Assembly: GCF_003334355.1 (NCBI RefSeq)
Contig: NZ_QOWP01000009.1
Length of the DNA stretch: 64,000 nt
Source: Escherichia coli
GTDB lineage: Bacteria > Pseudomonadota > Gammaproteobacteria > Enterobacterales > Enterobacteriaceae
Reading direction: 5' to 3' (one strand)
Part shown: in pieces, positions 5,794-42,865 of the stretch
How the letters are laid out: the number at the start of each line of letters is the position of its first letter
How positions within the stretch are numbered: the stretch's first letter is position 1
The notes under the pieces: generated by a model
What the model was told of the DNA's origin: nothing
The model's input: the letters and a program-made list of their open reading frames with translations, nothing else
Databases searched by the model: none
Made by a program: the position numbers and the translations under genes

Positions 5794-6381
5794 TCAGTTA
5801 ACTGAATCGATCCATTGCACACTCTCGGCGGTGAGCGTAAAGGGGGTGGGGGTGCAGATCGCAAGGCTTAAATTTTCTAGCTGACAATGGCTGACTGACA
5901 GCGAGGAGTGATAGGTGCTATCTACGCTGACGATTTGCCAGGCGCTGCCGCCACGCTGTTTAACGATGGCTTCTTTGCGCGTCCAGATGCGCCAGAACAT
6001 TTCCAGTTGCTGCTCAGGATGCACGGCGTCCATTTCAGCGTGTTCCCCGAGGCTGAACACGGCGTTCGCCAGCCAGCGCCAGTTGGCGCGCGGGCGAATC
6101 ACTTCGATATCGCAGCCGACTTCGCCTTCATCGCTCAACAGCAGAGCGATATCGTCACCGCTATGGCTTAAGTTGAACCATAGCGGCGTTTCCGGCGCGA
6201 ATGCAGGTTTGCCTTGTTCGCCATAGATGATCTCCGGTAGCGGGGAAAGCGTGTGCGAAAGCAATGCACGCCCCGCCAGCCAGCGTTCGCGTCGTGGACC
6301 TTGCGGTGCTTGCTCGCGTAAACCCGGTGGCAGTGGAGCTGCGCTTAAGGTCGAAACTTTCCCCAGAACTATCCGATACAT
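5794..6381 (-). CDS. acpT: Holo-ACP synthase 2 / 4'-phosphopantetheinyl transferase AcpT
   Basis: 195 aa ORF; position between nikA and yhhT; length matches AcpT. Confidence 0.88.
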   Translation of the reverse strand: MYRIVLGKVSTLSAAPLPPGLREQAPQGPRRERWLAGRALLSHTLSPLPEIIYGEQGKPAFAPETPLWFNLSHSGDDIALLLSDEGEVGCDIEVIRPRANWRWLANAVFSLGEHAEMDAVHPEQQLEMFWRIWTRKEAIVKQRGGSAWQIVSVDSTYHSSLSVSHCQLENLSLAICTPTPFTLTAESVQWIDSVN

Positions 6382-39859: not shown

Positions 39860-40855
39860 ATGAAAAAGAAAAGACCCGTACTTCAGGATGTGGCTGACCG
39901 TGTAGGCGTGACCAAAATGACGGTCAGCCGTTTTTTACGCAACCCGGAGCAGGTTTCCGTCGCTCTACGCGGCAAGATTGCCGCGGCTCTTGATGAACTG
40001 GGCTATATTCCCAATCGTGCGCCCGATATCCTCTCTAACGCCACCAGCCGGGCGATTGGCGTCCTGTTACCTTCTCTCACCAACCAGGTTTTCGCGGAAG
40101 TATTACGCGGAATCGAAAGCGTCACCGACGCGCACGGTTATCAGACCATGCTGGCGCACTACGGTTATAAACCGGAAATGGAGCAAGAACGCCTCGAATC
40201 CATGCTCTCCTGGAATATCGACGGCCTGATCCTCACCGAACGTACCCACACGCCGCGCACCTTAAAGATGATTGAAGTGGCGGGTATTCCCGTGGTGGAA
40301 CTGATGGACAGCAAGTCGCCATGCCTTGATATCGCCGTCGGTTTTGATAACTTTGAAGCAGCACGCCAGATGACCACTGCCATTATTGCTCGCGGGCATC
40401 GCCACATTGCCTATCTCGGCGCACGTCTCGACGAACGTACTATCATCAAACAGAAGGGATACGAACAGGCGATGCTGGATGCAGGCCTGGTGCCATATAG
40501 CGTGATGGTTGAGCAATCTTCTTCTTACTCTTCCGGTATTGAACTGATTCGCCAGGCGCGGCGGGAATATCCGCAGCTGGATGGCGTGTTCTGTACGAAT
40601 GATGACCTGGCGGTCGGCGCGGCGTTTGAATGTCAGCGTCTGGGGTTAAAAGTTCCTGACGATATGGCGATTGCCGGTTTCCACGGTCATGACATTGGTC
40701 AGGTGATGGAGCCACGACTTGCGAGCGTGCTGACGCCGCGTGAGCGGATGGGCAGTATTGGCGCTGAACGCCTGCTGGCGCGTATTCGTGGCGAATCTGT
40801 GACACCGAAAATGTTAGATTTAGGTTTCACCTTGTCACCGGGCGGATCTATTTAA
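39860..40855 (+). CDS. gntR: Gluconate repressor GntR (LacI family)
   Basis: 331 aa ORF with N-terminal HTH (LQDVADRVGVTKMTVSRFL) and periplasmic-binding-like fold. Confidence 0.93.
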   Translation: MKKKRPVLQDVADRVGVTKMTVSRFLRNPEQVSVALRGKIAAALDELGYIPNRAPDILSNATSRAIGVLLPSLTNQVFAEVLRGIESVTDAHGYQTMLAHYGYKPEMEQERLESMLSWNIDGLILTERTHTPRTLKMIEVAGIPVVELMDSKSPCLDIAVGFDNFEAARQMTTAIIARGHRHIAYLGARLDERTIIKQKGYEQAMLDAGLVPYSVMVEQSSSYSSGIELIRQARREYPQLDGVFCTNDDLAVGAAFECQRLGLKVPDDMAIAGFHGHDIGQVMEPRLASVLTPRERMGSIGAERLLARIRGESVTPKMLDLGFTLSPGGSI

Positions 40856-40934
40856 GCCCACAAATTTGAAGTAGCTCACACTTATACACTTAAGGCATGG
40901 ATGGATATTGCTTCTGATATTGTCCGGCTGGACA

Positions 40935-40963
40935 ATGTTACCGATAACAGTTACCCGTAACAT
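40935..40963 (+). promoter_or_regulatory. Candidate GntR operator upstream of gntK
   Basis: ATGTTACCGATAACAGTTACCCGTAACAT contains overlapping ATGTTAC...GTAACAT palindromic half-sites, 30-60 bp upstream of gntK. Confidence 0.5.
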
Positions 40964-40993
40964 TTTTAATTCTTGTATTGTGGGGGCACCACT

Positions 40994-41521
40994 TTGAGCA
41001 CGACTAACCATGATCACCACATTTACGTCTTGATGGGCGTATCGGGCAGCGGCAAATCTGCGGTCGCCAGTGAAGTGGCGCATCAACTTCATGCCGCGTT
41101 TCTTGATGGCGATTTCCTCCATCCACGGCGCAATATCGAAAAAATGGCGTCTGGCGAACCACTGAATGACGACGATCGCAAACCGTGGTTGCAGGCGCTG
41201 AACGACGCCGCGTTTGCTATGCAGCGCACTAATAAAGTGTCGCTGATCGTCTGTTCTGCATTGAAAAAACACTATCGCGACTTGCTGCGTGAAGGTAATC
41301 CGAATCTCTCTTTCATCTATTTGAAAGGCGATTTTGATGTGATTGAAAGCCGCCTGAAAGCGCGCAAAGGCCATTTCTTTAAAACCCAAATGTTGGTGAC
41401 GCAGTTTGAAACGCTGCAGGAGCCGGGTGCGGACGAAACCGATGTACTGGTGGTGGATATCGATCAACCGCTGGAAGGTGTTGTGGCAAGCACCATTGAG
41501 GTTATTAAAAAAGGCAAATAA
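40994..41521 (+). CDS. gntK: Thermoresistant gluconokinase GntK
   Basis: ORF track 40973..41521; protein matches the 175-aa GntK if started at in-frame TTG 40994 (STTNHDHHIYVLMGVSGSGKS, P-loop); ATG 40973 is an alternative start. Confidence 0.85.
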   Translation: MSTTNHDHHIYVLMGVSGSGKSAVASEVAHQLHAAFLDGDFLHPRRNIEKMASGEPLNDDDRKPWLQALNDAAFAMQRTNKVSLIVCSALKKHYRDLLREGNPNLSFIYLKGDFDVIESRLKARKGHFFKTQMLVTQFETLQEPGADETDVLVVDIDQPLEGVVASTIEVIKKGK

Positions 41522-41524
41522 GTA

Positions 41525-42865
41525 GTGACTACATTAACGCTTGTTTTAACAGCAGTAGGGTCTGTTTTACTGCTGCTGTTTTTAGTCATGAAGGCGCGTA
41601 TGCACGCTTTCCTGGCTTTAATGGTGGTGTCCATGGGGGCTGGCCTTTTTTCCGGTATGCCGCTCGATAAAATCGCAGCGACGATGGAAAAAGGGATGGG
41701 AGGCACCCTCGGCTTCCTGGCGGTGGTTGTCGCCCTGGGAGCTATGTTTGGCAAGATCTTACATGAAACCGGCGCAGTCGATCAGATTGCCGTCAAAATG
41801 CTCAAATCCTTCGGTCACAGCCGCGCGCATTATGCCATCGGCCTTGCGGGGCTGGTCTGTGCGCTACCGCTGTTCTTTGAAGTGGCGATTGTTCTGCTGA
41901 TTAGCGTTGCTTTCTCAATGGCGCGCCACACCGGTACGAACCTGGTGAAGCTGGTAATCCCATTATTCGCAGGCGTGGCGGCAGCGGCGGCGTTCCTGGT
42001 GCCAGGGCCAGCGCCAATGCTGCTGGCATCGCAGATGAACGCCGATTTTGGCTGGATGATCCTGATTGGCCTGTGTGCGGCAATTCCGGGAATGATTATT
42101 GCCGGGCCGCTGTGGGGTAATTTCATCAGCCGTTACGTGGAGTTGCATATTCCTGACGACATCAGCGAACCGCATCTCGGCGAAGGCAAAATGCCGTCCT
42201 TCGGATTCAGCCTGTCGCTGATCCTGTTGCCGCTGGTGCTGGTGGGGCTGAAAACCATTGCCGCGCGTTTTGTGCCAGAAGGCTCTACCGCTTACGAATG
42301 GTTCGAGTTTATTGGTCATCCGTTTACCGCGATTCTGGTTGCTTGTCTGGTGGCGATTTATGGCCTGGCGATGCGTCAGGGCATGCCAAAAGACAAAGTG
42401 ATGGAGATTTGCGGTCACGCGCTGCAACCGGCGGGGATCATTCTGCTGGTGATTGGTGCGGGCGGCGTGTTCAAACAGGTGCTGGTTGACTCTGGCGTAG
42501 GTCCGGCACTGGGCGAAGCGTTAACCGGCATGGGCCTGCCGATTGCTATCACCTGCTTCGTGCTGGCCGCTGCAGTGCGCATCATTCAGGGGTCTGCCAC
42601 CGTAGCCTGTTTAACGGCGGTGGGACTGGTGATGCCAGTCATTGAACAACTGAACTACTCTGGTGCGCAAATGGCGGCACTGTCGATTTGTATCGCTGGT
42701 GGTTCGATTGTTGTCAGCCACGTTAACGACGCTGGTTTCTGGTTGTTCGGTAAATTTACCGGCGCGACCGAAGCCGAAACGCTGAAAACCTGGACCATGA
42801 TGGAAACCATTCTCGGCACTGTCGGTGCCATCGTTGGGATGATTGCGTTCCAGCTGTTGAGTTAA
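41525..42865 (+). CDS. gntU: Low-affinity gluconate transporter GntU
   Basis: 446 aa polytopic GntP-family ORF. Confidence 0.92.
   Translation: MTTLTLVLTAVGSVLLLLFLVMKARMHAFLALMVVSMGAGLFSGMPLDKIAATMEKGMGGTLGFLAVVVALGAMFGKILHETGAVDQIAVKMLKSFGHSRAHYAIGLAGLVCALPLFFEVAIVLLISVAFSMARHTGTNLVKLVIPLFAGVAAAAAFLVPGPAPMLLASQMNADFGWMILIGLCAAIPGMIIAGPLWGNFISRYVELHIPDDISEPHLGEGKMPSFGFSLSLILLPLVLVGLKTIAARFVPEGSTAYEWFEFIGHPFTAILVACLVAIYGLAMRQGMPKDKVMEICGHALQPAGIILLVIGAGGVFKQVLVDSGVGPALGEALTGMGLPIAITCFVLAAAVRIIQGSATVACLTAVGLVMPVIEQLNYSGAQMAALSICIAGGSIVVSHVNDAGFWLFGKFTGATEAETLKTWTMMETILGTVGAIVGMIAFQLLS

Follow-up and report, generated by a model that had tools for sequence, protein, structure and literature searches.

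The analysis of the 64-kb stretch of Escherichia coli DNA considered here (64,000 nucleotides; hereafter, the window) leaves little doubt that the region upstream of gntK serves the E. coli gntKU operon as promoter, operator, and translation-initiation region, with gntK starting at the TTG codon at 40994. The gene, its regulatory region, and the curated TTG start are already known, and no new biology is implied by the results on either the start or the operator. The value of the analysis lies, rather, in annotation quality, namely, in that the curated 175-aa model with the TTG start is favored over the 162-aa and 182-aa models present in databases. The comparison across the Enterobacteriaceae adds that the gntKU double operator has a conserved spacing and a nearly conserved sequence.

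The open reading frames and the RefSeq annotation place the genes in the order gntR-gntK-gntU on the plus strand, at 39860-42865 of the window. The first of these encodes a protein that scores 776 bits against the NCBIfam model NF011563 (cutoff 433); E. coli GntR is a repressor of the LacI/GalR family, not a member of the "GntR family". In RefSeq/PGAP, gntK is annotated at 40994-41521 as the gluconokinase WP_000108330.1. The assignment to the GntK/IdnK-type gluconokinases comes from family-model scores above the curated cutoffs, that is, 374 bits against NF008583 (cutoff 265; aligned over 1-174 of 177) and 242 bits against TIGR01313 (cutoff 114), together with the P-loop GxSGSGKS, and the 175-aa translation is identical to residues 1-175 of the gluconate kinase chain in PDB 1KNQ. 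GntU scores 916 bits against NF007781. The 801-nt stretch that covers the region of interest (40800-41600) is 100% identical in many E. coli chromosomes, including K-12 derivatives, and is found in 5425 of the 5426 complete genomes. The features discussed below are collected in the table.

Features of the gntR-gntK-gntU locus, in coordinates of the window
Feature	Coordinates	Strand	Basis or remark
gntR, LacI-family gluconate repressor, 331 aa	39860..40855	+	ORF, RefSeq, NCBIfam NF011563
cAMP-CRP binding site, AAATTTGAAGTAGCTCACACTT	40861..40882	+	PMC2395238; core conserved
Putative -35 hexamer, TTGCTT	40908..40913	+	TTGC-T invariant in alignment A1
Putative -10 hexamer, GACAAT	40931..40936	+	Last 2 nt overlap operator 1
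GntR operator 1, ATGTTACCGATAACAG	40935..40950	+	1 mismatch to ATGTTA-N4-TAACAT; 80/80 species
GntR operator 2, CAGTTACCCGTAACAT	40948..40963	+	2 mismatches, 13-nt register; 80/80 species
Upstream in-frame TTG, 182-aa model	40973..40975	+	No Shine-Dalgarno sequence; start codon in 14/80 species
Shine-Dalgarno-like GGGGG	40982..40986	+	Duplex energy with 16S rRNA 3' tail
gntK initiation codon, TTG	40994..40996	+	RefSeq start, 80-species codon signature, conservation boundary
gntK coding sequence, thermoresistant gluconokinase, 175 aa + stop	40994..41521	+	NCBIfam NF008583, PDB 1KNQ
gntU, low-affinity gluconate transporter, second cistron, GTG start	41525..42865	+	ORF, RefSeq, NCBIfam NF007781

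The principal evidence on the start codon is comparative and comes from 80 Enterobacteriaceae loci taken from species-representative genomes, at 90% or greater protein identity, among which Escherichia, Salmonella, Citrobacter, Klebsiella, Raoultella, Enterobacter, Kosakonia, Kluyvera, Leclercia, Buttiauxella, and other genera are represented. The codon homologous to that at 40994 is TTG in 77 of the 80 species and ATG in the other three (Yokenella, Trabulsiella, and Buttiauxella), with no other codon and, in particular, no synonymous leucine codon in this position. Internal leucine codons of gntK behave differently: all 18 vary synonymously among the same species, and of the six internal codons that are TTG in E. 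coli, each is kept as TTG in just 0 to 20 of the 80 species. The codon at 40994, which undergoes no synonymous change, therefore does not evolve as an internal leucine codon. Complete invariance is rare in this gene, with only 7 of the 172 codons unchanged across the 80 species.

The boundary of protein-level conservation falls in the same place. In codons 2 to 13, the mean variability at the first, second, and third codon positions is 0.036, 0.017, and 0.207, respectively, compared to 0.48, 0.40, and 0.35 in the 21 nt upstream of 40994 read in the same frame, and the 5' edge of the three-base-periodic conservation is located exactly at this TTG. The TTG codon is in frame with ...STTNHDHHIYVLMGVSGSGKS and is followed by AGC ACG ACT AAC CAT GAT CAC CAC (S T T N H D H H), and the alignment with the NCBIfam gluconokinase model NF008583 reaches residue 1 of GntK. 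At the RNA level, the GGGGG element is predicted to pair with the 3' tail of 16S rRNA with an energy of -8.4 kcal/mol, leaving a spacer of 6-7 nt to the TTG, and is the only element in the leader complementary to the anti-Shine-Dalgarno sequence. The 80-species comparison shows a conserved purine-rich G/A block at -12 to -8, within which the G at -10 is invariant.

A sequence-only reading of this DNA had already placed the gntK start at TTG 40994, and this placement is borne out by the RefSeq annotation, the start-codon signature in the 80 species, and the position of the Shine-Dalgarno element. We infer, with very strong support, that this codon is the gntK start and that the product has 175 amino acids. 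The supplements of the N-terminomics (TRAINSPOTTER) and INRI-seq studies contain no gntK entries, which is to be expected given that gntK is repressed without gluconate, and a full-text literature search combining gntK, TTG, and "start codon" returned nothing relevant. Regulation by RNA structure in the leader was considered and rejected, the predicted fold having an energy of -14.8 kcal/mol with z = +1.0 relative to shuffled sequence.

Two other start codons have to be weighed. The frame upstream of 40994 is closed by TAA at 40967-40969, which leaves the TTG at 40973 as the sole upstream in-frame candidate. The sequence-only reading described this codon, 21 nt upstream, as an in-frame ATG; this was in error, and since the codon is actually TTG, the rival start is weaker still. 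Translation from it would yield a 182-aa protein, MYCGGTTLSTT..., which we regard as most improbable. To be sure, this TTG reads in frame into 40994 without an intervening stop; 14 of the 80 species, all Escherichia among them, keep a TTG at -21; and a 182-aa GntK model is present in GenBank for some O157:H7 genomes. However, there is no Shine-Dalgarno sequence in front of it (the duplex energy for the preceding 22 nt is +0.5 kcal/mol), the homologous position holds no start codon in 66 of the 80 species, including two with TGA, and in many species, in-frame stops occur between -24 and -21. Furthermore, the 21 nt from 40973 up to 40994 show no codon periodicity, the length of the spacer between the operators and the start differs across species by amounts not divisible by 3, and the curated gntK records are 175 aa long, not 182 aa. 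Thus, TTG 40973 is probably not used as a start codon, with the qualification that it may see minor use in the groups that keep it, namely, Escherichia and part of Citrobacter and Kosakonia.

The other candidate, which the sequence-only reading missed, is the ATG at 41033, that is, codon 14, the start in the original K-12 annotation, from which a 162-aa protein, MGVSGSGKS..., would be produced ("ORF_f162"). This ATG is invariant in all 80 species, and the 162-aa model, under the name ORF_f162 for MG1655, is carried by about 998 public contigs, compared with at least 1000 for the 175-aa model (that of GNTK_ECOLI and RefSeq) and 25 for the 182-aa model of some O157:H7 genomes. The CRP site of gntKU, AAATTTGAAGTAGCTCACACTT, moreover, is given in the literature at position -171 (PMC2395238), which appears to fit a start at ATG 41033 rather than at TTG 40994 and suggests that the older 162-aa annotation was then in use. 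Against this start, codons 2 to 13 are conserved at the protein level, with variation mainly at third positions, which excludes ATG 41033 as the beginning of the protein; the alignments with NF008583 and TIGR01313, the core of which begins at residue 11, both start before Met14; no properly spaced Shine-Dalgarno sequence precedes this ATG; and Met14 lies within the conserved YVLMGVSGSGKS strand and P-loop stretch. Accordingly, translation from ATG 41033 is highly unlikely, and TTG 40994 stands as the preferred start.

The second part of the main finding concerns the operators. The sequence-only reading noticed ATGTTAC and GTAACAT half-sites upstream of gntK, and these indeed are found at 40935-40941 and 40957-40963, where they form the ends of a 29-mer, ATGTTACCGATAACAGTTACCCGTAACAT (40935-40963), that begins 80 nt past the gntR stop codon. 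The element can be described in more than one way. It is an inverted repeat, with arms at 40934-40948 and 40950-40964 that are complementary at 13 of 15 positions and with ATGTTAC and GTAACAT as the outer half-sites; at the same time, this stretch contains two direct copies of the 13-nt GTTACC(G/C)(A/G)TAACA, offset by 13 nt. When ATGTTA-N4-TAACAT, which we took to be the GntR operator consensus and then checked against other promoters of the regulon, is used as the query, the element resolves into two operators that are offset by 13 nt and have 3 nt in common. A scan with the GntR motif, the check proposed in the sequence-only reading, thus recovers site 1 with one mismatch and site 2 with two.

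The statistics of the window are less telling than conservation. At no more than one mismatch, the motif has a single match in the 64-kb window compared to 0.12 expected; at no more than two mismatches, there are four matches compared to 1.8 expected; and there are two 29-mers in which 12 or more of the 14 pairs are palindromic, compared to 0.1 in shuffled sequences. These counts are only modestly above chance, so that the case for the operators rests on conservation and on the motif being shared regulon-wide. The second of the two near-perfect palindromes, also 29 nt long (CCGCTATGGCTTAAGTTGAACCATAGCGG, 12 of 14 pairs), is located at 6158-6186, inside the span of an open reading frame for 195 aa on the minus strand (5794-6381).

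The 29-mer is present, with no more than three mismatches, in all 80 species, amid flanks that have diverged and at a distance from the start codon that ranges from 16 to 85 nt. Variation within it is largely confined to two positions, the center base and the last base. The last base is T just in Escherichia and one other genome. At the center base (40949 in the window), 48 species have A, giving a better right half in operator 1 (TAACAg), and 32 have T, giving a better left half in operator 2 (cTGTTA), so that a gain for one of the overlapping sites looks to be a loss for the other. The 11 loci of the Klebsiella/Raoultella group stand apart in the spacing between the operators and the start, 72-85 nt as opposed to 16-43 nt, and contain an extra leader segment of approximately 45-55 nt between the operators and the Shine-Dalgarno sequence.

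The same motif, with no more than two mismatches, occurs in MG1655 at two sites upstream of gntT, at edd (one site upstream and one at the 5' end of the coding sequence), and at one site in the idnD-idnK intergenic region; within the gntT, edd, and idn loci of MG1655 (4-5.5 kb each), it is found nowhere besides these sites. A search at +/-13 of the other GntR-regulon sites of K-12 for a second site with up to five mismatches found none.

The literature provides the functional side of the argument. Ravcheev et al. 2014 (PMC4052901), citing Tsunedomi 2003, describe the overlapping GntR sites in front of E. coli gntKU, at a distance of approximately 13 bp, as functional. The same study reports overlapping LacI-family operators in the approximately 13-bp arrangement for 110 operons and for the majority of the GntR-regulated operons of gamma-proteobacteria, points out that simultaneous occupancy at 13 bp does not fit easily with LacI-DNA structures, and treats binding at this spacing as structurally unexplained. 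In a 2026 study (PMC13386637), GntR lowers the activity of a P_gntK reporter more than 5-fold. With GntR binding and repression taken from these sources, the assignment of the 29-bp element as GntR operators is supported, and the identification of the palindromes with such operators in the sequence-only reading is upheld by the regulon-shared motif, the conservation in 80 of the 80 species, and the published work. That the palindrome is instead a chance inverted repeat, the site of some other factor, or a leader RNA hairpin can be set aside as exceedingly improbable: although the motif count at up to two mismatches in the window is not significant (4 vs 1.8), an unrelated palindrome of the same length is present at 6158-6186, and IdnR/GntH is reported to recognize the same sites (PMC2395238), the element is kept in every species amid diverged flanks, its motif recurs at gntT, edd, and idn, functional GntR sites (PMC4052901) and GntR-dependent repression of P_gntK (PMC13386637) have been published, and the leader RNA folds no better than shuffled sequence (z = +1.0).

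The promoter that these operators appear to control can be traced by conservation in an alignment of 23 species (A1). The TTTGA...TCACA core of the CRP site is invariant in A1, and the spacing between TTGCTT and GACAAT is constant at 17 nt; in the latter hexamer, no species departs from the other five bases, and the C is kept by 90% or more of them. A scan with the sigma-70 consensus detected no promoter on the plus strand, which is why the hexamers are deduced from conservation, and their weakness explains the miss. With these putative hexamers, the transcription start would be located near 40943, the center of the CRP site near -71.5, and the centers of the operators near -0.5 and +12.5. The CRP site itself is conserved, and a class I geometry (a CRP site centered near -61.5, -71.5, or -82.5), here with CRP at -71.5, would depend on the putative -10 hexamer and transcription start; the supplements of two genome-wide transcription-start studies contain no gntK entries. 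Another pair of hexamers, with TTGTCC (40920-25) as -35 and GATAAC (40943-48) as -10, was rejected in view of TTGTCC not being conserved in A1. The two loci of Kluyvera ascorbata have 11 nt inserted downstream of the CRP site and ahead of the putative -35 hexamer, approximately 100-110 nt before position 1501 of these loci, in what resembles a tandem duplication of ATTCACTT...; judging by the alignment, CRP would thereby shift by one helical turn, from about -71.5 to about -82.5, with the phase kept.

The end of the -10 box and the transcription start of a CRP-dependent promoter, then, probably both fall within the 29-bp element, which points to the following scenario. Transcription would proceed from a weak, CRP-assisted sigma-70 promoter, starting near 40943. 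GntR, which is encoded immediately upstream, would bind the 29-bp element at 40935-40963, that is, two 16-bp operators in a 13-bp register, which covers the 3' end of the putative -10 box and some 20 bases at the beginning of the transcript. In that position, the repressor would block RNA polymerase, presumably by steric occlusion, until gluconate releases it. In the resulting leader of approximately 50 nt, GGGGG (40982-86) would position the ribosome, and initiation at TTG 40994 would give the 175-aa kinase MSTTNHDHH....

The second cistron likewise starts at a non-AUG codon. The GTG of gntU at 41525 is located 3 nt past the gntK stop codon TAA (window 41519-41527), and all 80 species have either GTG or TTG in the homologous position, in many cases sharing bases with the gntK stop (GTGA). 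With TTG in gntK and GTG or TTG in gntU, both cistrons of the operon have weak start codons. Within the first gntU codons, at 41550-41585, there is a hairpin that resembles an intrinsic terminator, CAGCAGTAGGGTCTGTTTTACTGCTG followed by CTGTTTTTAG. Its predicted fold has an energy of -17 kcal/mol (z = -1.8), and most of the 80 loci keep both the stem and the T-run. This hairpin probably corresponds to the gntK/gntU attenuator of the 1990s literature.

Beyond the reading presented above, it is conceivable, but on balance unlikely, that gntKU initiation has been under selection to be weak or that the 29-bp element, with its four half-sites, is bound in a non-canonical manner, such as in mutually exclusive registers or through sharing with IdnR. 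The first idea comes to mind because TTG is kept in 77 of the 80 species even though a single T-to-A change gives the stronger ATG, and because gntU has GTG or TTG family-wide, whereas idnK has ATG behind AGGAG. The second idea comes from the difficulty of fitting two LacI-type dimers into the fixed 13-bp register and from the A/T switch at the center base, which favors one site or the other.

The comparison with known systems places the locus squarely within the established gluconate regulon. The E. coli K-12 gntK (b3437; NP_417894.2; GNTK_ECOLI; PDB 1KNQ) is the same gene, with a protein identical over 175 aa; its coordinates in MG1655, 3577065..3577592, correspond to 40994-41521 of the window, the annotated TTG start is in the same position, and the order gntR-gntK-gntU is the same. 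The 3-kb locus is not byte-identical between MG1655 and the window, but nothing of substance differs. The double operator likewise does not differ from the overlapping operators described by Ravcheev et al. 2014 (PMC4052901), for which gntKU is the cited experimental example and type case. The operators of gntT, edd-eda, and idnD/idnK are the same 16-bp palindrome of the ATGTTAC-N2-GTAACAT type, with one or two mismatches, and are bound by the same LacI-family repressor, but in K-12, these sites are single, and the overlapping 13-bp pair is found at gntK only. The paralogue idnK (gntV), which encodes the thermosensitive gluconokinase, belongs to the same GntK/IdnK kinase family as gntK and shares with it the GntR/IdnR control and the operator motif; the two genes differ in how translation begins, with idnK starting at ATG behind a canonical AGGAG and gntK at TTG behind GGGGG.
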